This document shows positions 1 through 23,316 of a stretch of 64,000 nt of DNA, in pieces. Made by a program: the position numbers and the translations under genes. The stretch lies in the IMG/VR virus record IMGVR_UViG_3300038336_000025, one strand, 5' to 3'. The first letter of the stretch is position 1, and every line of letters begins with the position of its first letter. The notes under the pieces were generated by a model. The model was not told the origin of the DNA. It did not search any database and saw only the letters and a program-made list of their open reading frames with translations. Source of the DNA: a virus.

Positions 1-120
1 TATTTAATGCTATTTAATGCTATTTAATGCTATTTAATGCTATTTAATGCTATTTAATGCTATTTAATGCTATTTAATGCTATTTAATGCTATTTAATGC
101 TATTTAATGCTATTTAATGC
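1..120. repeat. Perfect tandem array, 12 x TATTTAATGC (10-bp unit), starting at the window edge
   Basis: Read directly: 1-120 is 12 identical 10-mers; the array may continue upstream of the window. Confidence 0.95.
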
Positions 121-200
121 TATTTAACATGACTTAACACAACTAATCACGACTTAGCACTATTTAATGCTACTCTGCACAACTAAGCACTATTCTAGGA
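121..200. repeat. Eight degenerate 10-bp-phased units continuing the array
   Basis: TATTTAACAT GACTTAACAC AACTAATCAC GACTTAGCAC TATTTAATGC TACTCTGCAC AACTAAGCAC TATTCTAGGA; period kept, sequence decays. Confidence 0.8.
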
Positions 201-472
201 TGATATACAAAACAACAAATTTGTAAAGCCCTTATTCTAGCCTTATTCTAAGCTGATTGTACAAATTAGCTTATTCTAATATACCTTATTCTAGGATTAT
301 TCTGTACGTTTTTTTGTCCAACCGTTGTACCATTATTCTAGGCTTATTCTACCGTTATTCTATGTTTTTATTTTACCTTATTCTAATATCGGCTTATTCT
401 AGGCTTATTTTTGTACATTCTATGCTTTTATTTTGTAATTGCCTTTATTCTAATCAGGTTATTCTAATTCTA
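192..472 (+). repeat. Iteron-like array of TTATTCTA, all in one orientation
   Basis: Exact copies start at 232,243,271,286,333,344,355,378,394,445,459; variants at 192,297,405,466; many neighbours are 11 bp apart. Confidence 0.85.
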
Positions 473-585
473 ATTGTTTAATTTTTGAACAGCAAAAGTG
501 TGCAATTTTTATACAGACTGTGCAATAAATGAGCAAAAATTGTTCAATTTTTAAACATATTTAAAATAAGGTTAACAAGCGTTAA

Positions 586-629
586 CATGCTTAAAACGCG
601 CTTATAATGCAGATTTAAGCATGTTTTTT
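586..629. other. 10-bp-stem hairpin (CATGCTTAAA/TTTAAGCATG) followed by T6A6; TATAAT in the loop
   Basis: Inverted repeat 586-595/614-623 read directly; T-run then A-run gives a bidirectional terminator-like look. Confidence 0.5.
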
Positions 630-1330
630 AAAAAAGATTATTTTTGGTACGATTGTTGCTATTATAAAGGCAAGCCATATTAGGACAATCCCAAACATGG
701 CAAGGCAAAAATACAAATTTTTAAATTTGTAAAAGCCTATCGGATTGAGTCGCTGGTACAATAGAGTTGTATAGCCTGATAAGCTAACTTAAACTTAAAA
801 AGTACTCGGGAACGTTTCAGGACGTTTTACAGCCAGCGTGGTACACAGACAGATGTACCGATGTTCAATCCTGAAAGTACGGGAGATGTACAAGCTTAAT
901 AAGCACGGCAGTACAGACTCACGGCAATTGTAAAACAGGCTGACAAAATAGCCGGTACGAGAAGTACCGATTTTGTAACAGGGTTTCAATTCGCTGTGAG
1001 TACATGATCAGGTTAACTGATTGTACGGTGAGGGATGAACGGATTGTACATTATCTCGCAGTTTCCTGAAGTACCTAGTCCATCGGATAGAAGGATACAA
1101 AAAGCATATAGAATAAATTGAATATGCAATTTTGTATTCGACAATAGGTACGAGTCGTACGACGAAACATTGTACATGGATTGCGAACGCTGTTGATGTA
1201 CAATGTGACTCTATAACGATTGAAGATACTTCAGATAATTCTGACGGTTTATACCAGACATGAACAAGCTATTCTAGCTTGAATACAATCTGGAATTGCA
1301 CCGGTACAAGCAAACAACAAAGTGAAGAAA

Positions 1331-1431
1331 GCCGGTACTTGTCTGATATCTAATCAGACAAGTACCGGCTTTTCCTATGTACAACGAGCAAGTTTATTTG
1401 CTTGAAATGTTATTTTTATGGAGAAATGTAA
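1331..1431 (+). promoter_or_regulatory. Early cassette A: terminator hairpin + T-run, TATGTA box, second hairpin, SD
   Basis: 17-bp stem GCCGGTACTTGTCTGAT/ATCAGACAAGTACCGGC; TTTTCCTATGTA (TATGTA 1376-1381); hairpin GAGCAA..TTGCTT; GGAG before ATG 1432. Confidence 0.7.
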
Positions 1432-1788
1432 ATGAAGACTTCAAAAATGATCGCAACTATGGCAATAAATGAAGTACGTGCCGCACATGAAATGTACGAA
1501 GCTCTGCTTGCCAGAGAGTACAACTTCACAGAATTGATTGCCGATATCGCAATGGAAATGAATTGTGATATCATAAATACAATTCATGCTGTGAAAAGTA
1601 CAGAAGTTGAATTCGACATGTGCAAGTACCATGAACGCTTCGACAATCTGCTGTACAAGGTTCATTCAATCCTGATGATTGCTGGGTACATCGACAGATC
1701 AGATGTAGAAGAGATGATAAGCAATATCGAAAACCAGTTTATCAAATCTATCGACAATCTGGTCGAAGAATACATGAAACCAGAATAA
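1432..1788 (+). CDS. Hypothetical early protein (118 aa)
   Basis: ORF track; GGAG SD; bracketed by cassettes A and B. Confidence 0.7.
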   Translation: MKTSKMIATMAINEVRAAHEMYEALLAREYNFTELIADIAMEMNCDIINTIHAVKSTEVEFDMCKYHERFDNLLYKVHSILMIAGYIDRSDVEEMISNIENQFIKSIDNLVEEYMKPE

Positions 1789-1799
1789 CGAAATACACA

Positions 1800-1882
1800 G
1801 CCGGTACCTAACAAGGTACCGGCGTTTTCTTATGTATATGAAGCTAATTAAATTGCTTCAAATTTATCTATGGAGTACAACC
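1800..1882 (+). promoter_or_regulatory. Early cassette B
   Basis: Stem GCCGGTACC/GGTACCGGC; TTTTCTTATGTA (1831-1836); hairpin GAAGC..GCTTC; GGAG before ATG 1883. Confidence 0.7.
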
Positions 1883-2146
1883 ATGAAAAAGATTATCACT
1901 TACCTCAAGCGTTCTAATGTACCAATGATCATCGACCACGAACTTGAATGCAATACATTCCAGTCCACAACAATCACCATTACAAACAAGAAGAAAACAG
2001 CTATCCTCACAAGGTCGTTGTTTACAATGGGAGATATCGAGGTAAGCATTGAAACACCACGTTCTGGAAAGTACGCGTGTAAACAGTTCAACTCTGAGCA
2101 GAAAGCATTGAACTACCTCTTCACTGAAGGGGTATTCCAGCCATGA
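1883..2146 (+). CDS. Hypothetical early protein (87 aa); start moved to the ATG after the SD
   Basis: Track ORF 1832-2146 begins inside the TATGTA box; ATG 1883 follows GGAGTACAACC. Confidence 0.65.
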   Translation: MKKIITYLKRSNVPMIIDHELECNTFQSTTITITNKKKTAILTRSLFTMGDIEVSIETPRSGKYACKQFNSEQKALNYLFTEGVFQP

Positions 2147-2235
2147 CAACAACACAACTTTACATAACATCAATTGTTGTCATATATTACATTCCGATTA
2201 TTATATCGGTTTTCTTTATAAAATACCATCGCTGA
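2143..2235 (+). CDS. 30-aa single-pass membrane peptide (MTTTQLYITSIVVIYYIPIIISVFFIKYHR)
   Basis: Translated by hand; ATGA start/stop overlap with the upstream gene; below the ORF-track length cut-off. Confidence 0.45.
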   Translation: MTTTQLYITSIVVIYYIPIIISVFFIKYHR

Positions 2236-2242
2236 TGTAAAC

Positions 2243-2324
2243 GCCGGGTACCAGTTCAGGCTGGTACCCGGCTTTCTTTATGTACAGGCGGTTTACGTCT
2301 GAAATAAATTAAGGAGTTTTTCAA
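2243..2324 (+). promoter_or_regulatory. Early cassette C
   Basis: Stem GCCGGGTACCAG/CTGGTACCCGGC; TTTCTTTATGTA (2279-2284); hairpin CAGGCG..CGTCTG; AAGGAG before ATG 2325. Confidence 0.7.
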
Positions 2325-3326
2325 ATGAAAAACACAGATTACATGTTCGAAGCAAAAGACAAGGATGGAAATACAATCGACTGCATCGGGTACATCTTCG
2401 CAATCGAGCTTCAGCGTAAGCTCTTCGACGTTGAAGAAGTAAAACGTGCAGCAACCGATAAAGGAATACCAACCAAGGTATTCAAGGATATCAAAAAGAG
2501 AACAGCGTTTACACAGGCGATCACTGCCATGACTAATCACATGAAGAAACGCGGATACGTTATCCACAAGGTATCTGATGATGCAAGTTCGGTTGTCTAC
2601 GCGGTCGATAAAAAGATCGTAAAAGACAAGGAATTGAACATGATCGCTTCTGATACAAACACTGAAACAACCGTGAATACTGACGCAGCAGAATATGAAA
2701 CAATTGCTAACTTCATTTACGACGTTGGAAATGATCGTGTATTGGCTGATTCACAGGATAGGCTTAAAGAGCTTGTTGCTGTACTCAACCTTTACATCAA
2801 CAGCTACACCAAGAATACATTCCGCATGAAGGTAAACGATATTATCGACTCGCTTGGTGACTGTATTGCATGGCGTCAGAAAGGCGGCGTGTATTTCGTT
2901 CCTGCAAAACACAAAAAAGCGTTGTTTGATGTTATCGAAATGGTAACTGCACTCGATGCTGGAAGCCGTGTAAAGCTTGGTGAAGTGCCAAATCTGACTC
3001 ATAGTAAGCAGGCTGTTGCAATGGCAGTAACTGAAGAGATTGGCAAAGAGGTAAAGCTTGTGAAAGAAAACCTTTCCAAGCTGTATAACTCTGGCGACCT
3101 CGACAACAAAGATATTGTAAATATCATAACAAAGCTTTCCAAACAGATACGCATAGTTGAAGAGTACCAGATACTCACTGAACGTACAATGGATGATAGC
3201 ATGAAGATCATTCAGGAAGTACAAGAATTGAGTAGAGAATTCCTAATGACCGGCAAGATTGTAAAGCCGATCATCGAAGAAGCTAAGATCGACGACGAGG
3301 TAGCCGATATACTGGCAGACCTTTAA
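2325..3326 (+). CDS. Hypothetical protein (333 aa), acidic-Leu C-terminal tail
   Basis: ORF track; AAGGAG SD; own cassette; no motif I can name. Confidence 0.75.
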   Translation: MKNTDYMFEAKDKDGNTIDCIGYIFAIELQRKLFDVEEVKRAATDKGIPTKVFKDIKKRTAFTQAITAMTNHMKKRGYVIHKVSDDASSVVYAVDKKIVKDKELNMIASDTNTETTVNTDAAEYETIANFIYDVGNDRVLADSQDRLKELVAVLNLYINSYTKNTFRMKVNDIIDSLGDCIAWRQKGGVYFVPAKHKKALFDVIEMVTALDAGSRVKLGEVPNLTHSKQAVAMAVTEEIGKEVKLVKENLSKLYNSGDLDNKDIVNIITKLSKQIRIVEEYQILTERTMDDSMKIIQEVQELSREFLMTGKIVKPIIEEAKIDDEVADILADL

Positions 3327-3341
3327 TCGTCAGATTACAAC

Positions 3342-3425
3342 GCCGGTACCTAACAAGGTACCGGCGTTTTTCTATGTATGAACGATGTTTAATTTATCGT
3401 TCAAATAAAAACAGGAGAAGTTACA
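3342..3425 (+). promoter_or_regulatory. Early cassette D
   Basis: Stem GCCGGTACC/GGTACCGGC; TTTTTCTATGTA (3373-3378); hairpin GAACGAT..ATCGTTC (3380-3402); AGGAG before ATG 3426. Confidence 0.7.
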
Positions 3426-4568
3426 ATGAAACTTCAAAACAAGTTTACAGACCTTGAAAAACAGGTCAATCAAGCGGTACTCGAAAGAGAAGACGTAATT
3501 CACCACATTATCCTTTCTTGCCTTGCGAAGCAGCACATTTTCTTGCTTGGTAAGCCGGGAGTTGGCAAATCATATATGGCGAAGAAATTCACCGAAGCAT
3601 TTGATTACATCGGTTCCGATGGATCACAGCCGTATTTCCAGATGCAAATGTCTGGCGGTACAGAAAAGTCTGAAATTTTTGGGCAGGTAAGTTTAACCAA
3701 ACTCAAAAATGATGTATTGTGGTATGAATCAGATTCGTATCTACCTAACGCAAGAATTTTCCTGCTCGATGAAATTACAAGAGCAAATAAACTTGCTCTG
3801 GACTCAGTACTTGAGCCAATCAATGAACGCACTTACAAAAACGGTGGTAAGGTGCATAAGACTCCGATTGAATTTGGCTTTGCTACAAGCAATTTCAAAT
3901 TCAACAGCGAACATTTTACCGCGCTGGCAGACAGATTTGTAAGCTGGTTCGAAATTGAGTCTCTCAGTAACGAAGGAAGAAGTTTGCTTCGACGTAAAAA
4001 GTTGAACAAAATGGCGATCACGATCAAGTTTACAGAAGTGGAATTAAAACAGGCCAGAACTGAAGCAATGGTAGTTACACTTTCTGATAAAGCTGATGAT
4101 CTAATCGGCGAAATCAGAGATGCACTTCAATCAGAACATGGTATTGAAATCAGTGACCGTAAAGAAGAAGCTCTTTGTGATCTTGTAAGAGCTGAAGCAT
4201 GGTTCAATGGTAGAACAGAAGCAATCGAAGAAGATGTATTGGCATCTATTCCTTGTTTCTGGATCGACCCGGCACATAAACCGATTGTTACAAAGCTGAT
4301 TCGTAGACTGTGCAATCCTCAGCTTGAAGTAATCGAAGAAACCAAGCTCAATGCTCTTACACTTCTGAGTAATAGCAAAGAGCAACCGACCGCTTACCCG
4401 CTTGAAGATGTAAGCGACCAGCTTAAAAGCTTTATGAAGTCTTTACAGGCAATCAATCCTACGCCAAAAAACAAGGATGTTTACGACAAGGCATTGATAA
4501 CAGTAAAGAAGCTTCAGGAAGCTGTGGCTGAATTGTTACTCGTGAAGATGAAGAAGGTGACTCAGTAA
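3426..4568 (+). CDS. MoxR-like AAA+ ATPase
   Basis: Walker A LLGKPGVGKS, Walker B IFLLDEITRAN; adjacent vWA partner. Confidence 0.8.
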   Translation: MKLQNKFTDLEKQVNQAVLEREDVIHHIILSCLAKQHIFLLGKPGVGKSYMAKKFTEAFDYIGSDGSQPYFQMQMSGGTEKSEIFGQVSLTKLKNDVLWYESDSYLPNARIFLLDEITRANKLALDSVLEPINERTYKNGGKVHKTPIEFGFATSNFKFNSEHFTALADRFVSWFEIESLSNEGRSLLRRKKLNKMAITIKFTEVELKQARTEAMVVTLSDKADDLIGEIRDALQSEHGIEISDRKEEALCDLVRAEAWFNGRTEAIEEDVLASIPCFWIDPAHKPIVTKLIRRLCNPQLEVIEETKLNALTLLSNSKEQPTAYPLEDVSDQLKSFMKSLQAINPTPKNKDVYDKALITVKKLQEAVAELLLVKMKKVTQ

Positions 4569-4574
4569 TACAAC

Positions 4575-4657
4575 GCCGGTACCTAACAAGGTACCGGCGT
4601 TTTCGTATGTAGAAGCAAGTTTAAAATGCTTTAAATCAATTAGAAAGGGGTAATACA
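4575..4657 (+). promoter_or_regulatory. Early cassette E
   Basis: Stem GCCGGTACC/GGTACCGGC; TTTTCGTATGTA (4606-4611); hairpin AAGCA..TGCTT; purine-rich SD before ATG 4658. Confidence 0.7.
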
Positions 4658-5953
4658 ATGGAAACCGTCATGCGTACAAAGCGTGAAAACGAATTCATTG
4701 AAAACCAAATCGAGCAGGATACCCAGTATGCAAACTGGGTAGACTATCGAGAATCACATTTCGGTAACTACAGAGAAGAATTTGGTGATATCTACACTTA
4801 CATGAACAAGAAGCATCCACAGTTCACAGATACACCAAATGCGTTAATGAAGACTTTCCTTGAAAGTAAAAAAGAGGATATCGAGAAGATCAAATCCTCA
4901 ACTACAGGGAAGTCGATGCAGTCTTACATGTCATCGAAGCGGCTCATGTATCTCTATGAAGATGTACTTGAGAAAACGCTGGAAGATTGTAAGAAGAAAG
5001 ACCCTGATTTTAACAACAAGAATCAGGAAGATCAGTTACAGTCTATGAATGAACTTGTAACTAAGTCTCCGCTGAAGGTTAAAATCCGCGTAAACCAGAA
5101 ACTTGAAGAAGTAAAAGACGAAATTGAAGAAGAACTCAATACACTTCAGGTAATTGGTTGTGGTGGCAATGCTGGTAAAGAAGAGAGCATCGACCGTGAA
5201 CGAGCTTTACAATTTCTTCAGATGATGAAGAAAAACTCAATGGTAAAGAAGATCATGGAACAGGCCGGTAAATTCATTAACACAGCGAAACATAAGATTA
5301 TGACTCGCTGCAAAGGTAATGAAGATGTTATCGGTGTAGAACTAGGAGATGATCTTCAGCGCATTTTACCAACTGAGATTGCTCAACTGGCATTACCTGA
5401 GTTTGAATTCTTACAGACTCTTAAATTCGTACAAAAGGAAGTGCCTCAGTATGAAAAAGAGTCTGGTGAGAGTAAAACGATTGGTGATATCGTTGTAGCT
5501 CTTGATGAGTCTGGCAGTATGAAAATAGATGACAACATCGTAAAAGCCAAAGCATTGCTTTTCGGTATCATGGAACAGGCAAAACATGATAACCGAAAGG
5601 TACAGCTGGTTGGTTTCGGTGGTAAAACAGAACACTATCTGATTAAAGATTTAACAATGGAAAAATTGTTAGATGTAATCAGCGTGTTCAAGAACTATGG
5701 TGATACCTGCTTTGAATATCCACTCTCTACAGCGATTGAGATGTGTGGTAAGTACAGCGATGTGATATTTATCACCGATGGTTACGCGCCGATAAGTGAA
5801 CGACTCAAGGCTGATGTAGAAGCTGCAAAGGAAAATCTGAATGTTAAGATAATTACAATGCAGTTTGGTTGTGTGTGTAATGAAGACCTTGAGAAGTTAA
5901 GCTCAAGCTTCAATACAACGTGGTCGCTGTTCACTGACAAGGCACTGAGATGA
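4658..5953 (+). CDS. von Willebrand factor A (vWA) domain protein
   Basis: MIDAS motif VVALDESGSM and downstream FITDG in the C-terminal half; follows the MoxR gene. Confidence 0.75.
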   Translation: METVMRTKRENEFIENQIEQDTQYANWVDYRESHFGNYREEFGDIYTYMNKKHPQFTDTPNALMKTFLESKKEDIEKIKSSTTGKSMQSYMSSKRLMYLYEDVLEKTLEDCKKKDPDFNNKNQEDQLQSMNELVTKSPLKVKIRVNQKLEEVKDEIEEELNTLQVIGCGGNAGKEESIDRERALQFLQMMKKNSMVKKIMEQAGKFINTAKHKIMTRCKGNEDVIGVELGDDLQRILPTEIAQLALPEFEFLQTLKFVQKEVPQYEKESGESKTIGDIVVALDESGSMKIDDNIVKAKALLFGIMEQAKHDNRKVQLVGFGGKTEHYLIKDLTMEKLLDVISVFKNYGDTCFEYPLSTAIEMCGKYSDVIFITDGYAPISERLKADVEAAKENLNVKIITMQFGCVCNEDLEKLSSSFNTTWSLFTDKALR

Positions 5954-5960
5954 TACAACT

Positions 5961-6042
5961 GACTGGAAGCGCGAAGCTTCCAGTCTTTTCGTATGTAGAA
6001 GCAAGTTTAATTTGCTTCAAATTTATTTAATGGAGTGTAAAT
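5961..6042 (+). promoter_or_regulatory. Early cassette F
   Basis: Stem GACTGGAAGC/GCTTCCAGTC; TTTTCGTATGTA (5992-5997); hairpin GAAGCAA..TTGCTTC (5998-6018); TTATTTAATGGAG before ATG 6043. Confidence 0.75.
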
Positions 6043-6339
6043 ATGAGTAACGAATTCGACTATAACTACAAAGAGCGTGAAATTATCAACTATGTACAGG
6101 AAGCAGTTTTACAGGAAGCAAACGTACCGATTGATAAATATTATTCAGCAATCGGTAATCTCGTTATGTGGGCAGCACATCATCCAAACTACAAGCTGCT
6201 TGTAATAGCACATGATCGTCTATGTGGTGATCTTATCGCCAACTACTACCCATCAAGAGAATCACTCAATCAGCGACCAGCGTATCAGCGTGGTGCTATC
6301 TGGCACAAAGATACCCAAGAATACAGCTTTCATTCATAA
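6043..6339 (+). CDS. Hypothetical protein (98 aa)
   Basis: ORF track; SD GGAG; cassette F upstream. Confidence 0.65.
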   Translation: MSNEFDYNYKEREIINYVQEAVLQEANVPIDKYYSAIGNLVMWAAHHPNYKLLVIAHDRLCGDLIANYYPSRESLNQRPAYQRGAIWHKDTQEYSFHS

Positions 6340-6350
6340 GGAGAAAATAA

Positions 6351-6641
6351 ATGTATTCAATTGATAAAATAACATTTGAAGGTGAATACCCAGATGGTAG
6401 AACACACTACCAAGATGTATTACATGATGGTAAATGTGTAGCAGCAATAGGACACCGACAATCTGGTTTATTAAAACCTGTTGAAATTTGGTGTCAAAAA
6501 CTTGTTCCTGATACAGAAATACCAAAATTGAAAGATCATTACATATCTGAAGACCCCGGATATGTATTTGCTGTATTTAAAGAAATGAATGATGATCTTG
6601 GTTTAACAGCACTTATCGAATACTTAAATAGAAAGGATTGA
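6351..6641 (+). CDS. Hypothetical protein (96 aa)
   Basis: ORF track; AAGGAG SD. Confidence 0.65.
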   Translation: MYSIDKITFEGEYPDGRTHYQDVLHDGKCVAAIGHRQSGLLKPVEIWCQKLVPDTEIPKLKDHYISEDPGYVFAVFKEMNDDLGLTALIEYLNRKD

Positions 6642-6652
6642 TTTACAAAAGA

Positions 6653-6737
6653 CCTACCAGTCAAAAGCTGGTAGGTATTTTCGTATGTAGAAGCAGCTTA
6701 TTTTCTGCTTTAATAAATTCATCAGGAGGTAATCATA
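6653..6737 (+). promoter_or_regulatory. Early cassette G
   Basis: Stem CCTACCAG/CTGGTAGG; TTTTCGTATGTA (6684-6689); hairpin AAGCAG..CTGCTT (compensatory change); AGGAGG before ATG 6738. Confidence 0.75.
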
Positions 6738-7073
6738 ATGATTATCAACGAAACAAAGATAGTAATCGACAGTGACAACAATTCAACTACCAACAACGGT
6801 GTTTCATATGCTCTTTACAAGAGACTTAAAAAGTCTGCAAGATTTGTTGGTCTTACAGAAGATCAACATCTTGTAATCGTCACAACAACAGACAAGATAT
6901 TGATTGGTGGACGCAACATTCACCGTGGTAAAGCAGTCGAGTTGTCGGAGAACGTGGTAATGTTCGACGGGGACAGTTATGATTACAACAAGAAAAACAA
7001 ATCAGTTATGGTTGTCAGGAAGGACAAATACAGATTTGAAAAAGCGGAGCTTTACATTCCTCTTGAAGCATGA
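6738..7073 (+). CDS. Hypothetical protein (111 aa)
   Basis: ORF track; AGGAGG SD; cassette G upstream. Confidence 0.65.
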   Translation: MIINETKIVIDSDNNSTTNNGVSYALYKRLKKSARFVGLTEDQHLVIVTTTDKILIGGRNIHRGKAVELSENVVMFDGDSYDYNKKNKSVMVVRKDKYRFEKAELYIPLEA

Positions 7074-7083
7074 TTTTACAAAG

Positions 7084-7166
7084 CCTACCAGTCAAAAGCT
7101 GGTAGGTCTTTTCGTATGTAGAAGCAAGTTAAATTGCTATCAAATTTATTTAATGGAGTTGTAACC
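7084..7166 (+). promoter_or_regulatory. Early cassette H
   Basis: Stem CCTACCAG/CTGGTAGG; TTTTCGTATGTA (7115-7120); hairpin AGCAA..TTGCT; TTATTTAATGGAG before ATG 7167. Confidence 0.75.
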
Positions 7167-7793
7167 ATGAGAACTATTCAACCAGAAACTTTCAACGTGT
7201 ACACAATAGACGAGCTTACAGACGAGAAAGCAAAGAAGAAAGCAATAGAATTCTGTAAAGAAGATGCTACAAGTGATGAGTTGTTGTTTGAAATGGTAAT
7301 TGATGAAGCGACAGAACAGCTTACAAGAATGGGGTTCTATGATCCCAAGATTTACTACAGCTGCTCTTACAGTCAGGGTGATGGTGCTTGCTTTGTAGCA
7401 GATAGAATGTGCCACTTCGATAAGCTGTTACCAGCACTCAAAAGATTATTCAATAAACAGCAATGGAAAGCATTGAGAAAGATACATCGTTCTGGTATGG
7501 AACTTGAGCTTTCACTACACCATCACGGTAATTACTACCATGAGAATTCTGTATCAGTGTCGTTGGATATCACAGATCATTACATACAGAAATTTGTCGG
7601 AGACAAACACGTTACAGAATATCTCATTGAGATTGAAAATGTAATATCTGATTGGTATAAAGACATCTCTCGTTCTATTTACAAAAAACTCTGTGCGGAA
7701 ATTGAATACTACTGGAAAGACGAAAATTGTATTCAATATGCCAAAGACAGAGAATTTGAATTTACCGAGAATGGTAAACTTTATCAGGATTGA
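7167..7793 (+). CDS. Hypothetical protein (208 aa), contains YSCSYSQGDGACF motif
   Basis: Track ORF 7134-7793 trimmed to the ATG after GGAGTTGTAACC. Confidence 0.7.
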   Translation: MRTIQPETFNVYTIDELTDEKAKKKAIEFCKEDATSDELLFEMVIDEATEQLTRMGFYDPKIYYSCSYSQGDGACFVADRMCHFDKLLPALKRLFNKQQWKALRKIHRSGMELELSLHHHGNYYHENSVSVSLDITDHYIQKFVGDKHVTEYLIEIENVISDWYKDISRSIYKKLCAEIEYYWKDENCIQYAKDREFEFTENGKLYQD

Positions 7794-7802
7794 ATGTAAC
7801 AA

Positions 7803-7884
7803 AGAGCTACCAGTCAAAAGCTGGTAGCTCTTTTCTAATGTAGAAGCAAGTTAAATTTGCTTTAAATCTTATTAGGAGTTGTAT
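7803..7884 (+). promoter_or_regulatory. Early cassette I
   Basis: Stem AGAGCTACCAG/CTGGTAGCTCT; TTTTCTAATGTA variant box; hairpin AAGCAA..TTGCTT; AGGAG before ATG 7885. Confidence 0.7.
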
Positions 7885-8097
7885 ATGAAAACGTATAAAC
7901 AGAGGATGGATCGTATTTTAAAGAACAACAAACGACAACAACTGAAAACGAAAAATCGTATGAAATGGTTGTGGAACCTTATTTACAGCAATATTCGTAA
8001 AAACAAAGGCTTGAAAAAAGAACACTTTGCAGAAAATCCAACTGTAAGAAAACTTGGTGTCCTTGCCAATAGAATTTACATAAGGAGATCATTATGA
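7885..8097 (+). CDS. Small very basic protein (70 aa)
   Basis: Track ORF starts at TTG 7879; ATG 7885 follows AGGAG. Confidence 0.6.
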   Translation: MKTYKQRMDRILKNNKRQQLKTKNRMKWLWNLIYSNIRKNKGLKKEHFAENPTVRKLGVLANRIYIRRSL

Positions 8098-8288
8098 AGT
8101 ACGCCTTAGTCAATCATGGTAATGGAGAAGGTTGGGTTTGTATGGCATTTGAAAACAAGGCAGAACTGCTTTCTTACTGCCAGAGCTATCATTACCAGCC
8201 GATATCGGCCAGAGAATCGAAAAAACACAGCGATGTAAAGATTGTTCGTTCTTTTGGTTCTGGTAATGATAAATGTTGGAAATGGTAA
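8094..8288 (+). CDS. Hypothetical protein (64 aa)
   Basis: ORF track; ATGA overlap with the upstream gene. Confidence 0.6.
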   Translation: MKYALVNHGNGEGWVCMAFENKAELLSYCQSYHYQPISARESKKHSDVKIVRSFGSGNDKCWKW

Positions 8289-8302
8289 AGGAGAAGTAAA
8301 TC

Positions 8303-8602
8303 ATGTTAGAAATTACAGGAAGAAACTATCAAAATTGCGGTAAAAGTCCTGCTGGTTCTCCCATACCAGAAACAATCAGACTGGTTGTTGATGGTTACAA
8401 ACGCGAACCTCTCTGGTTTCACAAAAAGAACCTTATGCAAACAGCTACAGGTTATGGTGGACGGCTTGTTACAGAACACATGATATGTATTGGAAAACGA
8501 TGGCACCGTGTTTACTGTGCATGTTTTTCAAACTCTGGAACTAACTACATTATCAAGAATGGTAAACACATTGTTATCGACCTTGATGACGTTGTTTGCT
8601 AA
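8303..8602 (+). CDS. Hypothetical protein (99 aa)
   Basis: ORF track; AAGGAG SD. Confidence 0.65.
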   Translation: MLEITGRNYQNCGKSPAGSPIPETIRLVVDGYKREPLWFHKKNLMQTATGYGGRLVTEHMICIGKRWHRVYCACFSNSGTNYIIKNGKHIVIDLDDVVC

Positions 8603-8616
8603 CTGGATGTAAACTT

Positions 8617-8769
8617 ATGATGGAGTTTTTGATATTGTGTGTCTGCTTTCCAGTAATTCCTGTGGTTATCTGGATGGTATTCATGTTGGCAACCCTGAGC
8701 CTTACTGCCATCATGAGTGTCATTTATTGTGTGTTGAGTATCTTTAACCCACCAAAACCAAAAGAGTGA
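8617..8769 (+). CDS. 50-aa two-helix membrane peptide
   Basis: Hand translation MMEFLILCVCFPVIPVVIWMVFMLATLSLTAIMSVIYCVLSIFNPPKPKE; not in the ORF track. Confidence 0.45.
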   Translation: MMEFLILCVCFPVIPVVIWMVFMLATLSLTAIMSVIYCVLSIFNPPKPKE

Positions 8770-8787
8770 TTTACAAAGGAGAAAGTC

Positions 8788-8988
8788 ATGACTATTGATG
8801 ATAAAAAGGTATTAAATATGTTACGAACAGTCCTTGATGATGATCAAGGTATAAGTGAGAAAGCATACAGTGCTCTAATGGACTTCATTGTTGAAGATGT
8901 TTACGATGGAGTTCATACAAAGGAAATGGTTGAACTTATAAATTCTGTAAGAATACAGGATGATCGTTATTTTATACCAAGAAACTGA
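8788..8988 (+). CDS. Hypothetical protein (66 aa)
   Basis: ORF track; AAGGAG SD. Confidence 0.6.
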   Translation: MTIDDKKVLNMLRTVLDDDQGISEKAYSALMDFIVEDVYDGVHTKEMVELINSVRIQDDRYFIPRN

Positions 8989-8998
8989 TTTACAAAAG

Positions 8999-9083
8999 CC
9001 TACCAGTCAAAAGCTGGTAGGTCTTTTCGTATGTAGAAGCAGCTTATTTCTGCTTCAATTTTAATTAGCGAGAGGTGTATTAC
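8999..9083 (+). promoter_or_regulatory. Early cassette J
   Basis: Stem CCTACCAG/CTGGTAGG; TTTTCGTATGTA (9030-9035); hairpin GAAGCAG..CTGCTTC; GAGAGG before ATG 9084. Confidence 0.75.
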
Positions 9084-9392
9084 ATGTCATCTATTGATAC
9101 TGCCGTTCTTCTCATTAAAAAAGCTCTGGAAAATGGTCTTGGTAGAAAGAATCTCACAGCCGCTTCTGTAACTGGTGGTAATATTTTCTTCAGGTTGAAG
9201 CAAACAGGATATGTTGTAGACATAGCTTCTCTTGAAGTATTCAAGACAATCGCAGAAGAAAAAGGTACTAGAGTAATGGTTGATGATTACTCAATGATTA
9301 TTCAAGAATACATTCAGAACGTTCTTAACAACGAAAATTCCGTATTGAAAATAATGGACGATATCATTGTTGAAAGAGGTATTAAACTATGA
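9084..9392 (+). CDS. Hypothetical protein (102 aa)
   Basis: Track ORF trimmed to ATG 9084; cassette J upstream. Confidence 0.65.
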   Translation: MSSIDTAVLLIKKALENGLGRKNLTAASVTGGNIFFRLKQTGYVVDIASLEVFKTIAEEKGTRVMVDDYSMIIQEYIQNVLNNENSVLKIMDDIIVERGIKL

Positions 9393-9679
9393 GTAGGCCA
9401 AAAATATGGTCAAGTGGTTGTGGTAGAATAGAACTTCCTCTTTTCAAGAAAGAGTATTCGACAGTGCCTTTAAGTGGTCGTGCTGATGATGCTGTAGAAG
9501 CTCTTATGAAACAGCCTGATATTATCAAACGATTCGATAAATACGACGATGAAACTATTTTCAAGGTCGTCAGGCCAATCTTCGGTGATTACACAGATAA
9601 AGAGCTGCAAGATAGGACAGAAAACATTCGTAAAATCCTCTGGATTGCTTGCAGTGAATTACAAGAAGGGAGATATTAA
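9389..9679 (+). CDS. Hypothetical protein (96 aa)
   Basis: ORF track; ATGA overlap. Confidence 0.6.
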   Translation: MSRPKIWSSGCGRIELPLFKKEYSTVPLSGRADDAVEALMKQPDIIKRFDKYDDETIFKVVRPIFGDYTDKELQDRTENIRKILWIACSELQEGRY

Positions 9680-9680
9680 C

Positions 9681-9941
9681 ATGCAACAGATTCTTATGTG
9701 TAACCGAGAACAGTTCTTTAAAATGTTTCCACCAGAAACAAGAAACATTACAGTTAATGGTGAAGTTGTATGCAACTTAGGATATGAAGTCATTTGCGAT
9801 CACTGTAATGGTGATGTATTCTCTGAAGAAAACGATAATGCTTTCCTGTTGTCTTACAAAGAAAATCCAATGACGACTGATGATATATCAGATGTTATCT
9901 GTGTAGACTGTGCTTTAAAACTTCAAAAAGAAGGTGAATAA
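9681..9941 (+). CDS. Small Cys-rich (zinc-ribbon-like) protein (86 aa)
   Basis: Track ORF 9549-9941 trimmed to ATG 9681 after GGGAGA; CDHCNG...CVDC. Confidence 0.6.
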   Translation: MQQILMCNREQFFKMFPPETRNITVNGEVVCNLGYEVICDHCNGDVFSEENDNAFLLSYKENPMTTDDISDVICVDCALKLQKEGE

Positions 9942-9961
9942 CTTTGAGTAAATCTGAAAAA

Positions 9962-10108
9962 ATGGTATTCCAAGACATAATGCTTTGGTGTGTAAATAAC
10001 TTAATGCCCGGTGTTGATCATGTTGTTTACAGAGGAACTATTTATTGGACTGATAGTTCCTCTGATCTACAAAAACTATATGAATTATGGCAGAACGATC
10101 AATCTTAA
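9962..10108 (+). CDS. Hypothetical small protein (48 aa; in-frame TTG 9944 is an alternative start)
   Basis: Hand translation; fills the gap before cassette K. Confidence 0.4.
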   Translation: MVFQDIMLWCVNNLMPGVDHVVYRGTIYWTDSSSDLQKLYELWQNDQS

Positions 10109-10117
10109 TTGCAAAAG

Positions 10118-10202
10118 CCTACCAGTCAAAAGCTGGTAGGTCTTTTCGTATGTAGAAGCAAGTTTAATTTGCTTTAAATTTATTTAATGGAGTGTATTAA
10201 AT
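10118..10202 (+). promoter_or_regulatory. Early cassette K
   Basis: Stem CCTACCAG/CTGGTAGG; TTTTCGTATGTA (10149-10154); hairpin AAGCAA..TTGCTT; TTATTTAATGGAG before ATG 10203. Confidence 0.75.
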
Positions 10203-10679
10203 ATGGAAAAGCGTGTAGAGCGAGCATTTGGCAAAGATTACTATCTAATTGGTTCCGACAAAGATGGTGTTTTGTATTGGTTGGAACAGAGCAAGTTCGA
10301 TTGTGATTGGTATTGGTCAATTGGATATATTGAATCATTTACATGCAACGAACATCCGTCGAAATCCAGAGATATTGCTTCCCATCGGCATCTTGATGAT
10401 CTTTTAAATACAACCAATCTCAATTGGTATGATGCAATGAAGGTTGTTTTCACTGAGCGTACATTAGATGACAAACAACTATGGACATTCTCCGAAATTA
10501 TGAAAAGTCTTTACACAATGAGGGCATACAGTGATCTGCTACACACAGGGAGTTCTGGTCTTACAAGTAATCCATGCATCATTATCAAAAATAAGGAAGA
10601 GTATAACAGAATAAATAAGATTCTAATACCAGATTTATTGAATGCTCTTTACAATCTTCTAACCTTTGGAAAGGAATAA
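10203..10679 (+). CDS. Hypothetical protein (158 aa)
   Basis: ORF track; cassette K upstream. Confidence 0.7.
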   Translation: MEKRVERAFGKDYYLIGSDKDGVLYWLEQSKFDCDWYWSIGYIESFTCNEHPSKSRDIASHRHLDDLLNTTNLNWYDAMKVVFTERTLDDKQLWTFSEIMKSLYTMRAYSDLLHTGSSGLTSNPCIIIKNKEEYNRINKILIPDLLNALYNLLTFGKE

Positions 10680-10683
10680 ATTC

Positions 10684-10761
10684 ATGAAAGACAATCGTTA
10701 TTTAATGGTGTATAATCCGATGTACAAAGTCTGGGAACTAATAAAAAGGAGAAATAAATGA
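10684..10761 (+). CDS. Possible 25-aa peptide
   Basis: Hand translation MKDNRYLMVYNPMYKVWELIKRRNK; ATGA overlap with the next gene. Confidence 0.25.
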   Translation: MKDNRYLMVYNPMYKVWELIKRRNK

Positions 10762-11204
10762 ACCAAATCGGAGACATCGTTGTATCAAAGCAAGGAAGAT
10801 TTTTAATTGTTCTTATGAGAACTGATACAATCATTGAGGAAATGGAAGAGATTATCACAACACGGGAACCAATCATCATTACGGCCCCTATCAGATTTGA
10901 CAGGTTTACAAAAGAAGGGTTCCTTGTTGTTCCTCAGTATTCAAGCATCCAAAAACCTTTCGTTGTCGAGTACTATAACCGGGAATATCTTTATGAAAGC
11001 GAGATAGCAAAAGAGATAGGGTTTGTAACGAACAGCAAAGTCATTTCAGACATTGCAAATCTTATGAAAGAAGAACATGTAGACCTTCGAAAGATTCATG
11101 GTGTCACAAGAGCTAAAAACATTTGTAAGAACCTGCTTCTTGAAAATACACGCTTTCAATTGGAACTGCGTGAAAACAATCCAGAACAGATTTATTACCA
11201 TTAA
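10758..11204 (+). CDS. Hypothetical protein (148 aa)
   Basis: ORF track; AAGGAG SD. Confidence 0.65.
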   Translation: MNQIGDIVVSKQGRFLIVLMRTDTIIEEMEEIITTREPIIITAPIRFDRFTKEGFLVVPQYSSIQKPFVVEYYNREYLYESEIAKEIGFVTNSKVISDIANLMKEEHVDLRKIHGVTRAKNICKNLLLENTRFQLELRENNPEQIYYH

Positions 11205-11232
11205 CATCTCTAACTAAAAGGAGAAAACTTGT

Positions 11233-11814
11233 ATGTATAAAAAAATAAAGTCAATTGAGATTTCCGCGACGGTTATTAAATTTGAAACAGATGAATTTAA
11301 AGGTACTGTAAGATCACCGGCACCCTTTAACTTCGATTCGAAATTAAGCAATCAACGACTTGAATACGACTGCAACGACAACTATAAGGTTGTTATATTC
11401 AAGAATAACCTTGTTATCTATGACTATCAAGATGTTGTATTGAAGTTCTATATACCAAATCCTGTCAGATATTACATAGTTAAAGATGTGAAAACCAAAG
11501 GATTGTTTTCTCTTGAATACAGAAAACACCTTCGCGGAGACTATGACTGCGATAAACACGTACTTGTGAATATGAACGGGGTTGATACAGAAAACAACCC
11601 GGCGTTTGATAGGATAGCTAAGAAGGTTGGAAAATATTCAAAGGGTATTTACAAACAACCTATATTGATTATCTTTTATGATGCACAGGACGACTTAATA
11701 CGGTACTCAATTGTTTCGGAAAATGTTGTAGTTGAGAGTGGTTGTGAAACTTATGATGAACGGATTGATCCAACAGAATTACCAAATATATTCGACACTG
11801 ATGATGTAGGATAA
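11233..11814 (+). CDS. Hypothetical protein (193 aa)
   Basis: ORF track; AAGGAG SD. Confidence 0.65.
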   Translation: MYKKIKSIEISATVIKFETDEFKGTVRSPAPFNFDSKLSNQRLEYDCNDNYKVVIFKNNLVIYDYQDVVLKFYIPNPVRYYIVKDVKTKGLFSLEYRKHLRGDYDCDKHVLVNMNGVDTENNPAFDRIAKKVGKYSKGIYKQPILIIFYDAQDDLIRYSIVSENVVVESGCETYDERIDPTELPNIFDTDDVG

Positions 11815-11820
11815 CTGCTT

Positions 11821-12063
11821 ATGATGGGATTCATAAGCACAATTCTACAACGTTGTGTTGATCTTTTTGAATTATGTATTGTCTTGTTGCAACTAGCTTG
11901 GAATCTTTATATGTTCTATTTAACATGTAAGATAGCGATATTTGTAATAAACAATGCTGTTGGGTTATTCATTCTTGTAATCATATGCCCGTCAATACTG
12001 ACATCAAGTGCAATGTTCATACGAAATGCGTTTGTGGAAATTAACGCAGGAAAGCGAGGATAA
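11821..12063 (+). CDS. Membrane protein (80 aa, 2-3 hydrophobic helices)
   Basis: ORF track; hydrophobic throughout. Confidence 0.55.
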   Translation: MMGFISTILQRCVDLFELCIVLLQLAWNLYMFYLTCKIAIFVINNAVGLFILVIICPSILTSSAMFIRNAFVEINAGKRG

Positions 12064-12108
12064 AAATACCCCCTAGTATCAACGCGGTACTAGGGGGTAT
12101 TTTTTTTT
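12062..12108. terminator. Bidirectional intrinsic terminator at the convergence of the + and - modules
   Basis: 13-bp stem ATACCCCCTAGTA/TACTAGGGGGTAT flanked by A5 and T8. Confidence 0.85.
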
Positions 12109-12109
12109 G

Positions 12110-12751
12110 TCAACTTAAATCTATTTTGCTCAGTTGTAAATCAATATCATCCATTGTGTTCTCTTCGGTCTTCTTGCTTGTTTCCAAATCAACAACTGAT
12201 TCAGGTAAATTATCTTCTGGTTGCATATCTGTATTTAATTCATCATCAATTGCTTTAAATTCTTTCTCTTTCTCTTTCAACTCATCAACTACAACAACAG
12301 CATCGCTTGTATTCGTTTTGAGAATGCTTGAAAGCTTTGTCATGATATCATTTTTCAATTGCTTAATGTCGGTAGTTTTTGCGTTGTCTTTATTCAATTC
12401 TGCGCCCATTTCAAGGGCACCTGACTGGATGTAGTTGTTCAATACGATCTCTAGCTTGTCAGTCTCTATCAAAACCTTTAAATTGAGGTTGTTGAGGTAC
12501 TTAAACAATGCGATTGCTTTGGCCGGATCAAGATCATTTATAAAAGCAGGATTAAAAATCTTTTTTTCCATATCACCCAACCATTTTTGGGTATTTTGGA
12601 TCATCGCAATTCTTGCCGTTGTAGCAGAACTTAAAGCTTGGAAAATCGCTTTCTTGCGTACATCGACAAGCTGTTTATCAATCTGGTTCATTTTATCGGC
12701 ATTTTGATCGAGTGTTTTTAAATCGGTCTTTGTAAATTTTACTAAAGACAT
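12110..12751 (-). CDS. Hypothetical coiled-coil protein with acidic C-terminus (213 aa)
   Basis: ORF track. Confidence 0.65.
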   Translation of the reverse strand: MSLVKFTKTDLKTLDQNADKMNQIDKQLVDVRKKAIFQALSSATTARIAMIQNTQKWLGDMEKKIFNPAFINDLDPAKAIALFKYLNNLNLKVLIETDKLEIVLNNYIQSGALEMGAELNKDNAKTTDIKQLKNDIMTKLSSILKTNTSDAVVVVDELKEKEKEFKAIDDELNTDMQPEDNLPESVVDLETSKKTEENTMDDIDLQLSKIDLS

Positions 12752-13049
12752 ATTCCGTTTCCATCCTTTGATCTGCCGTAAGAGGCAAGTATTTTAAACA
12801 CTGTCTCACATACCGCATTAAGTTTTGAGCATTAAAAAGAGTTTGTGTATACAATTCATTATGTCTGAAATACCGCAACAACGCAAGTTTTTGTTTATGA
12901 TTAAGAAGATTGTTATTTTTTATTTTACAAACAATTTCCTTGTGTGTTTCACACTTAGAAATTGAATTTAAAAATCCGGTCATGATAAAGTTACTAATGT
13001 TAACATTATCATCAACACCAACAATCTCTTGTAAGTTTAAATCTTGCAC
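12693..13049 (-). CDS. Hypothetical protein (118 aa); 59-nt overlap with the downstream gene
   Basis: ORF track. Confidence 0.55.
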   Translation of the reverse strand: MQDLNLQEIVGVDDNVNISNFIMTGFLNSISKCETHKEIVCKIKNNNLLNHKQKLALLRYFRHNELYTQTLFNAQNLMRYVRQCLKYLPLTADQRMETEYVFSKIYKDRFKNTRSKCR

Positions 13050-22293: not shown

Positions 22294-22374
22294 ATTGCCA
22301 GATAAGGGAGTCGAACCCTTATGCTTTCGCGCTGAAGCTTAAATTCAGTGTGTATTCCATTTCACCAATCTGGC
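22294..22374 (-). tRNA. tRNA-Leu (anticodon UAA), class II; no encoded CCA
   Basis: Hand-folded: acceptor GCCAGAT/ATCTGGC, anticodon loop TTTAAGC, 11-nt variable region, T-arm AAGGG-TTCGACT-CCCTT, A73 then ATG. Confidence 0.85.
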
Positions 22375-22520
22375 AAGTGGTAAGGCGGCAATTGCTTGCC
22401 GCCTACCGATTATAACATCAACCTTTCAGGGCTGCAATTTCCTTGTCAATATCTTCTACAGACATTGCTTCAAGTGATGCATTCAACAGATTAACCATAA
22501 CATATTTTAAATCGTCTGTC

Positions 22521-22556
22521 AAGAAAAAACATCGTTTAAATCATTTAAACGATGTT
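22521..22556 (-). terminator. Intrinsic terminator-like hairpin downstream of tRNA-Leu(CAA)
   Basis: 13-bp stem AACATCGTTTAAA/TTTAAACGATGTT followed on the minus strand by TTTTCTT. Confidence 0.6.
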
Positions 22557-22584
22557 TAAAGAGAGGATTTTCGGACAAACGAAT

Positions 22585-22666
22585 TAGCAAGGGTGGGACT
22601 TGAACCCACAAGCCTCTCGGCGACTGCTTTTGAAACAGCTACGTCTACCAATTTCGTCACCCTGCC
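22585..22666 (-). tRNA. tRNA-Leu (anticodon CAA), class II; no encoded CCA
   Basis: Acceptor GGCAGGG/CCTTGCT (two G-U pairs), Leu-type D-arm ACGAAATTGGTAGACGT, loop TTCAAAA, long variable arm, T-arm GTGGG-TTCAAGT-CCCAC. Confidence 0.85.
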
Positions 22667-22789
22667 ATAGAAAAGGTACCACCGAACTACCGTCTATTTT
22701 GTAAATGGTTGGATTATGAGTCCAACGTTACAAAATGCGTTAGTGCGAAACGTAACGGTTGACACAAATAGTTCAGTAAAAATGTTCGA

Positions 22790-23077: not shown

Positions 23078-23110
23078 GAATATACCTCCGAAATAAATTG
23101 TAAAACACGG

Positions 23111-23182: not shown

Positions 23183-23316
23183 AGATGGTGTAATGGATGG
23201 CTTAATTCCACTACACCGTAAAACAAGAACGGGTTTGAGTTCACGTATCGTTATTGAGCAAAATATTGATAAAAGATTTCAAACCAATGTAACCGGCACA
23301 GCCAGCGTTACATCAA

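Follow-up and report, generated by a model that had tools for sequence, protein, structure and literature searches.

The closest known concept to the locus described here is the promoter-early stem-loop (PeSL) cassette of T4-like phages, a composite terminator/promoter element found in RB49, phi1, PST, and nt-1 that mediates modular shuffling (PMC2839356, PMC4122927). PeSLs combine a small intergenic terminator stem-loop, usually with a GGGG...CCCC stem, with an upstream A/T region and a strong sigma70-type -35/-10 promoter. A related layout is seen in the host-takeover module of the SPO1 terminal redundancy, in which many short genes near the genome end are each equipped with a terminator, a strong ribosome-binding site, and a promoter of the strong host sigma-A type. 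SPO1 is not known to have a repeated cassette in which a leader hairpin covaries, and its comparison with the present locus, which was drawn in the original prediction, holds as an analogy of layout and extends no further.

Several phage start signals other than the -35/-10 type are also relevant. Promoters of the T7/SP6 type end in ...TATA|G. In phiKZ late promoters the motif is TATG, with G as +1 (PMC4666361). The gp36-dependent middle/late promoters of phiEco32 (tAATGTAtA) start 6-8 bp downstream of the element (PMC8948821). At the level of the message, the 5' hairpin of T4 gene 32 is an example of a 5'-terminal stem-loop stabilizer (cited in PMC8948821).

In the uncultured phage analyzed here (genome of ~123 kb), one genome end is split into small gene units by eleven copies of a cassette that is largely PeSL-like. 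Our analysis covered a 64,000-nucleotide stretch of this genome (the window) and a 21-kb locus, L099, which corresponds to approximately window positions 52-73 kb and reaches ~9 kb past the window end. The eleven predicted cassettes were each located on the + strand between genes (1328-10205), co-oriented with the genes, and the composite is real: a GC-rich hairpin with a T-run (H1), a box, and a second hairpin (H2) were recovered at every site, followed by AAAT, an A/T spacer, GGAG, and ATG. The box has the form TTTTCnT(A/T)TGTA across the cassettes, with H2 beginning 0-3 nt later, and only ~12 nt lie between the terminator and H2; AAAT and GGAG are 7-11 nt apart (counted from the cassette sequences). 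Each cassette follows a stop codon and keeps a constant spacing to the ribosome-binding site. The features are as follows.

Cassette 1, 1328..1434, + strand: H1 1328-1372, 20-bp stem including A/T flanks; box TTTTCCTATGTA 1370-1381; H2 CGAGCAA/TTGCTTG 1385-1404; GGAG ~1420; ATG 1432; covariance model E=6.6e-4.
Cassette 2, 1796..1885, + strand: H1 GCCGGTACC...GGTACCGGC 1800-1823; box TTTTCTTATGTA 1825-1836; H2 TGAAGC/GCTTCA 1839-1860; ATG 1883.
Cassette 3, 2240..2327, + strand: H1 2243-2272; box TTTCTTTATGTA 2273-2284; H2 CAGGCG/CGTCTG 2285-2301, with a G·U pair; ATG 2325 (DUF6744 gene); covariance model E=0.33.
Cassette 4, 3338..3428, + strand: H1 3339-3368; box TTTTTCTATGTA 3367-3378; H2 TGAACGAT/ATCGTTCA 3379-3403; ATG 3426 (bpMoxR ATPase).
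Cassette 5, 4571..4660, + strand: H1 4572-4601; box TTTTCGTATGTA 4600-4611; H2 GAAGCA/TGCTTT 4612-4632; ATG 4658 (VWA protein).
Cassette 6, 5958..6045, + strand: H1 GACTGGAAGC...GCTTCCAGTC 5961-5985; box 5986-5997; H2 GAAGCAA/TTGCTTC 5998-6018; ATG 6043; covariance model 61.6 bits; left partner of the natural deletion in L035.
Cassette 7, 6650..6740, + strand: H1 ACCTACCAG...CTGGTAGGT 6652-6676; box 6678-6689; H2 GAAGCAG/CTGCTTT 6690-6711; ATG 6738.
Cassette 8, 7081..7169, + strand: H1 7083-7107; box 7109-7120; H2 GAAGCAA/TTGCT(A)TC, one bulge, 7121-7141; ATG 7167.
Cassette 9, 7801..7887, + strand: H1 GAGCTACCAG...CTGGTAGCTC 7804-7830; box TTTTCTAATGTA 7831-7842; H2 7843-7863; ATG 7885.
Cassette 10, 8996..9086, + strand: H1 8998-9022; box 9024-9035; H2 GAAGCAG/CTGCTTC 9036-9056; ATG 9084.
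Cassette 11, 10115..10205, + strand: H1 10117-10141; box 10143-10154; H2 GAAGCAA/TTGCTTT 10155-10175; ATG 10203; covariance model 61.3 bits; right partner of the natural deletion in L035.
Two-way terminator-like hairpin, 12062..12104: strong, 17-19 bp, no box, no H2.

Not all of the units are single-gene units as had been proposed, since the eleven cassettes serve ~21-26 small genes (e.g., those at 7885-8988 and 9084-10108), most of them without family matches; the region is presumably expressed early. Upstream of cassette 1 is 1.3 kb of non-coding DNA with no gene, and the two-way hairpin at 12062..12104 closes the + strand cassette region against a converging - strand module.

The cassettes are confined to this region. 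Covariance model R1 matches only 1370-10179 on the + strand within the window, with no match inside genes, elsewhere in the window, or in L099; it misses cassette 4 at E<=1 because the stem is offset by 1 nt. The occurrence of TTCTTATGTATAA at 44189, previously pointed out as a similar element, is in an 850-nt ORF-free stretch, lacks both hairpins, and gives no covariance model match. Uncultured relatives carry the same layout, which is kept over bpMoxR identities of 93-28% while the sequence drifts, and their boxes are clade-specific (TATGTA, GGGTGTA, or CCTTGTTTGA), which fits a phage-specific reader.

H1, with its three stem families as originally described, has the features of an intrinsic terminator, i.e., a GC-rich stem-loop followed by a U-run and folded in the transcript strand, and likely functions as one. 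Folding energies range from -16 to -32 kcal/mol (mean z -6.5 vs. shuffles), and a terminator scan of 1-13000 returned 28 sites vs. 7.5 expected. Wobble pairs in H1 are G·T rather than A·C by 19:5, and therefore the hairpin folds in the sense strand. The T-runs are short (4-5 T) and in several copies paired with an upstream A-run, fully so in cassettes 1 and 9; H1 may for these reasons be a leaky attenuator.

H2 has folding energies of -3.9 to -9.8 kcal/mol (mean z -3.7 vs. shuffles; loops of 5-12 nt), and it is kept as a structure and not as a sequence, with real compensatory changes, as had been predicted. Together, the window and relatives supplied 44 distinct copies. In most of these H2 begins 0-3 nt past TGTA; the hairpin is followed by (A)AAT, and double-sided changes occur at 7/7 pairs. 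The alignment behind these counts was made with the covariance model and so was fitted to the structure, and it includes many copies that arose from one another by duplication. In it, 97% of cells form pairs vs. 83.8% in shuffles, and 33 cells are compensatory vs. 5.2 expected, a signal that is lost when partner columns are slid. The G·T vs. A·C count of 15:1 places H2 on the sense-strand RNA, and both covariation and RNA-type wobble reach the first pair (G-C/G·U). Of the two roles suggested for it, a 5' stabilizing hairpin or an operator, this sense-strand bias favors the leader or stabilizer and speaks against a DNA operator. H2 is thus probably a 5'-proximal leader stem-loop with a stabilizing role.

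The box between the two hairpins is strongly enriched: TTTYNTATGTA has 10 exact matches in the window vs. 1.01 +/- 0.93 in shuffles, nine of them on the + strand within 1371-10154, while cassettes 3 and 9 carry variants with one mismatch each. Only TGTA is invariant, preceded by a T/C-rich run. A sigma70/sigma-A -10 element was considered and rejected, given that the final base of "TATGTA" is A, position 2 is A, T, or G, the positions matching -11A and -7T are not kept, and neither a TGn nor a conserved -35/-10 pair is present between H1 and the Shine-Dalgarno sequence in the cassettes. The claim that the box has no -35 partner is thereby supported, as is its difference from the consensus TTGACA-N17/18-TGnTATAAT promoters elsewhere in the window, which are at 14305 and 25710 on the - strand and at 43618, 44984, and 50108 on the + strand. 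Moreover, the sigma70-type start, 6-8 nt downstream, would fall within H2; because H2 starts 0-3 nt past TGTA, the box cannot be a conventional -10 hexamer if H2 is transcribed whole. We infer that the box is a promoter, in the form of a non-canonical start signal, with transcription most likely starting within or just after TGTA. The phiKZ late and T7/SP6-type promoters share the geometry needed for whole-H2 transcription, i.e., a conserved motif abutting the start site, but they need phage-encoded polymerases, and the box shares only 4 nt of sequence with them. The ORFs tested, which represent ~74 kb of the ~123-kb genome, yielded neither a phage RNA polymerase nor a sigma factor; if this region is the first to be expressed, a non-host signal would need its factor to arrive along with the DNA, and none was seen.

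We favor, at slightly better than even confidence, the interpretation of every copy as a compact portable expression cassette in which a terminator, a start signal, a leader hairpin, and a recombination joint are brought together. H1 and its T-run would end the upstream unit and leave a protective hairpin at its 3' end, and the box would mark the start of the next transcript by a signal not of the host -35/-10 type. H2, a few nt from the 5' end, would most likely shield the message from 5'-end-dependent decay, while the A/U-rich AAAT spacer and GGAG would form an open ribosome-binding region. This arrangement resembles 5'-terminal stabilizers of the ompA type, in which a stable hairpin at most ~4 nt from the mRNA 5' end prolongs half-life and is likewise followed by an open A/U-rich ribosome-binding region; their geometry is compatible with H2 if transcription starts within TGTA, although the 5' end here is presumed and the stabilizing role putative. 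More tentatively, the box could represent a new lineage-specific promoter class whose reader, an unrecognized phage-encoded polymerase or sigma-like factor, initiates inside TGTA; we regard this as possible rather than probable. If so, only ~10 nt would lie between one terminator and the next start, and a protective hairpin would follow that start immediately. The end of one transcript and the beginning of the next would then be physically coupled, and the whole unit would serve as a portable module for gene expression and recombination.

The main rival to a promoter role is RNA processing, in which a polycistronic read-through RNA would be cut at the single-stranded UUUUCGUAUGUA linker between the hairpins by a host enzyme of the RNase E/RNase Y type or by a phage endoribonuclease, leaving H1 to protect the 3' end and H2 the 5' end. 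Both hairpins are indeed under RNA-level selection on the same strand, and the H1 stem runs through UACAAAAG/CUUUU(C)GUA, leaving only UGUA unpaired before H2, with the box exactly at the expected cut place. Read-through is plausible because the T-runs are short, and RNase Y in staphylococci, whose cleavage is guided by a downstream hairpin, prefers G-containing A/U-rich sites. However, the DNA ahead of cassette 1, in the window as well as in the relative L039, has no + strand promoter with at least 10/12 matches, so that a single long transcript would lack a visible source, and passage through a series of eleven stable hairpins, each with its T-run, should stop most transcription. Cassette 1 has a 20-bp H1 despite the absence of an upstream gene, and clade-to-clade variation of the kind seen in the box would be unexpected for a host RNase site. 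We consider processing unlikely. Somewhat less likely again is a single-element, -10-like promoter at which host core polymerase would be directed by a phage sigma factor lacking region 4, in the style of phiEco32 gp36. Like the gp36-dependent promoters, the box is a single short ATGTA-containing element without a -35, and in the TATGTA clade T(A/T)ATGTA(G/T)A agrees with tAATGTAtA at 6-8 of 9 positions; further, a gene for a 153-aa Sigma70_r2 protein is present on a phage contig that also has bpMoxR but is more distant. But the present element is joined to both a terminator and a hairpin, and with initiation 6-8 nt downstream the RNA would begin inside H2 and lose its 5' arm. H2 could then function solely in read-through RNA or at the DNA level, yet the wobble bias and covariation reach the first pair. 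Other clades have GGGTGTA or CCTTGTTTGA instead, no gp36 homolog was found (best E=0.21; phmmer, ORFs >=50 aa of the window, L099, and relatives), and the scanned ORFs of the window and relatives contain no Pfam sigma domain.

Two further explanations were weighed. It is very improbable that the copies are mainly selfish or structural, whether as a REP/MITE-like repeat or as a recombination hotspot, contribute little to expression, and spread with the flanking inverted repeat TACAAAAG...CTTTTGTA. The H1 flanks are inverted repeats, the copies recombine, a TnpB gene is present at 50945-52066, and the GTAG/GTAC directly before H2 loosely recalls REP elements, in which a hairpin with a conserved 5' tetranucleotide goes together with a Y1 (RAYT) transposase. 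Nevertheless, such a repeat would not account for the uniform orientation with the genes, the fixed placement between stop codon and ribosome-binding site, the absence of copies in genes or elsewhere, and a layout that outlasts sequence drift across clades; no Y1/RAYT transposase was recognized by eye among the ORF translations adjoining the TnpB gene. In an N4-type promoter, supercoiling extrudes a DNA hairpin, with a 5-7 bp stem and a 3-nt loop on the template strand, which a giant polymerase carried in the virion then reads. This explanation is already disfavored and seems barely credible. The hairpin is kept as a structure, and its commonest stem, GAAGC/GCTTC, resembles that of the N4 P2 hairpin. 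However, loop lengths here are 5-12 nt and not 3, the G·T bias on the coding strand means that the template strand would hold A·C mismatches, and no giant polymerase was seen; the protein encoded beyond the window (at least 1957 aa) resembles a tail protein and lacks a DxDGD motif.

The proposed portable expression cassette shares several features with PeSLs. The phage itself cannot be recognized as a T4 relative (its PolB shares 23-28% identity with anything in GenBank phages). In both systems a terminator stem-loop and a start signal are combined in a small intergenic element that recurs many times among small, non-essential genes without a known function, and, judging from the sequence, every unit here would likewise be transcriptionally insulated. 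Unlike PeSLs, the element has no strong sigma70-like early promoter inside it and carries a second, covarying RNA hairpin; what sets it apart is the unusual start signal and the extra RNA hairpin in an otherwise PeSL-like cassette. The PeSL match and the recombination between copies were not part of the original prediction. As in PeSLs, recombination between copies deletes, inserts, and replaces gene-plus-cassette modules between close relatives. With 30-80 nt of near identity common to them, the copies act as homology patches at which recombination can remove, add, and reorder such modules. The cassette copies do serve as recombination joints: relatives vary in the gene-plus-cassette modules they carry, the window, L092, L093, L094, and L039 show a mosaic gene order, and L092 has an extra 61-aa gene between two cassettes. 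In the natural variant L035, H1 of cassette 6 is joined to the leader of cassette 11 with the loss of 6043-10202, and the crossover is inside 33 nt common to the two cassettes.

The window lies at the end of a metagenomic contig of 123.5 kb (ENA ERZ27239240 k141_164039), the source of which is an uncultured tailed phage. A megablast search with the cassette region against GenBank phages gave no match, the PolB of this phage shares only 23-28% identity with any GenBank phage, and tblastn with its DUF6744 protein and phage-type MoxR ATPase (bpMoxR) found only remote relatives among them, at 24-32% identity. A plus-strand gene block at 1432-12063, with 1.3 kb of repeat-rich non-coding DNA upstream, encodes these two proteins and a VWA protein, along with some 20 small proteins that match no family. 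As originally predicted, the same composite unit is present in 11 intergenic gaps of this block (cassettes 1-11 in window order). Each consists of a GC-rich first hairpin (H1, in three stem families) with a T-run, a box (TTTTCnT(A/T)TGTA), a second hairpin (H2) beginning 0-3 nt downstream of the box, (A)AAT, 7-11 nt of A/T, GGAG, and ATG.

Exact copies of the box number 10, where 1.0 would be expected, and nine of the 10 are co-oriented within 1371-10154. Terminator-like sites are likewise enriched in the first 13 kb (28 observed, 7.5 expected). The predicted folding energies are -16 to -32 kcal/mol for H1 (mean z -6.5) and -3.9 to -9.8 kcal/mol for H2 (mean z -3.7). A covariance model of the box and H2, built from 15 same-register copies since MAFFT alone failed on the differing loop lengths of H2, recovers 10 of the 11 cassettes and matches nothing else on the two strands of the 64-kb window, nor anything in L099, a 21-kb locus that runs on for about 9 kb beyond the window; the similar element that had been proposed at 44189 is not a cassette copy. 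Rfam has no match for the cassettes. A conserved TACAAAAG just 3' of the upstream stop codon flanks H1 in all cassettes (e.g., 6644-6689) and is complementary to CTTTT(C)GTA after H1, so that the stem reaches into the box; in the transcript, UACAAAAG pairs with CUUUU(C)GUA and UGUA is the sole unpaired piece between the two hairpins. The minus-strand reading of H1 is also terminator-like (CTTTTGTAAA). In cassettes 5-8, 10, and 11 the box contains ATG TAG, a start codon with an immediate stop (e.g., 5992-5997); no ribosome-binding site precedes it, and it is probably incidental.

H2 was predicted to be maintained at the structure level, and this is borne out by 44 distinct copies aligned to the model, in which all seven H2 pairs show two-sided changes. 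In these related copies, with an alignment fitted to the structure, 97% of H2 cells are paired (83.8% in shuffles) and 33 are compensatory (5.2 expected); the signal collapses when the partner columns are slid by 1-3 positions. The stems include GAAGCAA/TTGCTTC, GAAGCAG/CTGCTTC, GAAGCAC/GTGCTTC, GAAGAGA/TCTCTTC, GAGACA/TGTCTT, GAACGAT/ATCGTTC, CAGGCG/CGTCTG, and CAAGCG/TGCTTG, among others. Using a stem finder that scores G·T and A·C equally, we counted 15 G·T and one A·C wobble pairs in 31 unique H2 stems, and 19 G·T and five A·C in H1 stems. As G·U is tolerated only where the plus strand folds, both hairpins act in the transcript. Of the two roles originally considered for H2, a stabilizing or an operator hairpin, the wobble bias thus fits action in RNA and argues against a DNA operator, as it does against an N4-type template-strand hairpin. 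The same strand bias offers a way of deciding, by sequence alone, whether a hairpin acts in RNA or is a DNA operator.

The box had been described as lacking a -35 partner and differing from consensus promoters, and our analysis agrees. TGTA is its sole invariant part; position 2 of TATGTA varies among A, T, and G, and the final base is A. The most important positions of a sigma70 -10 element are A at position 2 and T at position 6, and judged by sequence the box is unlike such an element. A conserved -35 is lacking, since the space where it would lie is taken up by the three H1 families. Host-type TTGACA-N17/18-TGnTATAAT promoters are found elsewhere in the same genome, at 14305(-), 25710(-), 43618(+), 44984(+), and 50108(+), which makes their absence from the cassettes meaningful. 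Selection on H2 as RNA extends to the first pair of the stem (G-C or G·U), directly 3' of TGTA, so the transcript cannot begin downstream of the H2 base, and a start 6-8 nt downstream of a -10 would cut H2.

A promoter role of the box is plausible, and we favor a non-host start signal that would abut the start site. The main rival is RNA processing, with UGUA between two protective hairpins as an endonuclease site, and a sole unpaired UGUA in that position is what such a site would be expected to look like. However, no promoter that could feed a processed transcript is visible: in the upstream non-coding DNA of the window or of L039, a relative, none matching 10 or more of 12 positions is directed toward the cassettes, and a single long transcript, apparently without a source, would meet eleven terminators. 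Cassette 1 carries a 20-bp H1 though no gene lies upstream of it, and the box differs from clade to clade. For these reasons we rate processing lower than a start signal. Several known signals were also considered and rejected. The fit to a Bacteroidota-type promoter (TTTG...TAnnTTTG) is poor and inconsistent, with GGAG at nearly every gene and perfect TTGACA/TGnTATAAT promoters also speaking against it; sigma54, sigma-B, MotA-box, and lambda nut (boxA/boxB) elements showed by eye no conserved spacing or sequence; and a two-part promoter (TGTA...AAAT) with H2 as its spacer is at odds with a distance varying from 17 to 27 nt.

The start-abutting geometry proposed for the box is that of T7-like promoters and of the phiKZ late promoters, where the motif is TATG and G is +1 (PMC4666361). 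The phiEco32 gp36 promoter, a single element tAATGTAtA, resembles the box in sequence but differs in starting 6-8 bp downstream (PMC8948821). No homolog of gp36 was found by phmmer, nor any polymerase or sigma factor among about 55 ORFs searched with Pfam or PHROGs, within 74 kb of the 123.5-kb contig. Beyond the window, L099 1-4471 encodes a protein of at least 1957 aa adjoining a 920-aa collagen-like fiber gene. Pfam gave no match for it and PHROGs only a weak one, to tail proteins. Checks of its sequence, of the PDB, and of motifs gave nothing to suggest a polymerase or sigma factor; it looks like a tail protein.

Through homologs of the MoxR protein we traced uncultured relatives that match the window in gene order and carry cassettes of this kind.

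MoxR identity of the cassette-bearing relatives
L092-L095: 92-95% (L092, 95%)
L039: 81%; 105.7-kb contig, NCBI GCA_033813855.1
L040: 78%
L043 and L096: 38-39%
L041: 28%; 106.7-kb IMG/VR contig

The layout of hairpin with T/C-run, short box, hairpin, A/T spacer, and SD is constant in all of them, and the box is clade-specific: TATGTA, TAATGTA, or TTTTGTA in the closer relatives, GGGTGTA in L043/L096, and CCTTGTTTGA in L041. No repeated 11-mer of the cassette type occurs at 48 distant bpMoxR loci (GTDB, IMG/VR), so the cassette belongs to one clade and not to the bpMoxR gene. The exact box-plus-stem pattern gave 31 single matches in IMG/VR, close to chance expectation; no contig carried more than one copy.

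The cassettes also mark recombination joints. In L035, a deletion variant from a sister sample (ERZ27239242), H1 of cassette 6 is fused to the leader of cassette 11 by a crossover within the shared CTTTTCGTATGTAGAAGCAAGTTTAATTTGCTT, with loss of 6043-10202 (about 15 ORFs). The assembler k-mer, judged from the k141 contig names, was 141, and the shared repeat is shorter, making assembly collapse unlikely. L092 has an additional 61-aa gene with a cassette on each side, and L040 a half-cassette scar joined to coding sequence. The DUF6744-MoxR-VWA core trio is fixed across the window, L092, L093, L094, and L039, while genes downstream of it are inserted, lost, and reordered. Promoter-early stem-loop cassettes (PeSLs) of T4-like phages behave this way, with recombination between copies and gene shuffling (PMC2839356, PMC4122927). 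The cassette here works like a PeSL but lacks the sigma70 promoter of one, and it has a covarying leader hairpin in addition; we class it as a new type of PeSL-like cassette for regulation and recombination. The idea of portable gene-shuffling cassettes is thereby extended to an unrelated, uncultured clade of 105-125-kb bioreactor-metagenome phages, with natural recombinants found in sister samples. The approximately 50 distinct copies define a compact terminator/start/leader unit with a putative start signal unlike host promoters. This offers a concrete lead toward a new phage transcription factor or polymerase, and the unit may also serve as a small insulating expression part.

The repeats at window 1-480, where the contig ends, could be an origin, packaging, partition, or terminal-repeat region. 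GTAC is also strongly clustered (window 750-2300), with 37 of the window's 142 sites in the first 2 kb, seven within the first gene, and a spacing of often 22-25 nt between 841 and 1200. Many H1 stems, including those of the distant clade L043/L096, contain GTAC twice (GGTACC). The pattern suggests that the DNA here is bound or modified at a series of sites. A new non-coding RNA may be encoded in the stretch from 43618 to 44480, where Rfam matched nothing up to E<=1. No Y1 transposase was recognized near the TnpB gene.

Other features of the window
1-120: 12 perfect tandem copies of TATTTAATGC, degenerating into 10-mers until about 190
230-470: about 14 copies of the TTATTCTA box
22295-24630, minus strand: phage-encoded tmRNA (24043-24412; 156 bits; tag ANEESYNAVAA) with eight tRNAs, the whole set lying 3' of the consensus promoter at 25710
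43618, plus strand: consensus-like promoter TTGACG-N17-TGaTATTAT, then about 850 nt without a credible ORF
50945-52066, plus strand: lone TnpB (IS605 OrfB/Cas12f-like) gene, 3' of a perfect sigma70 promoter at 50108
30314-31261, 39327-40103, 54504-55196, 56327-57166, and 35320-35940: genes for four N6/N4 DNA methylases and for one further SAM methyltransferase

An N-terminal DNA repeat (54504 and 56184, 76% identity) is common to two of these methylase genes.
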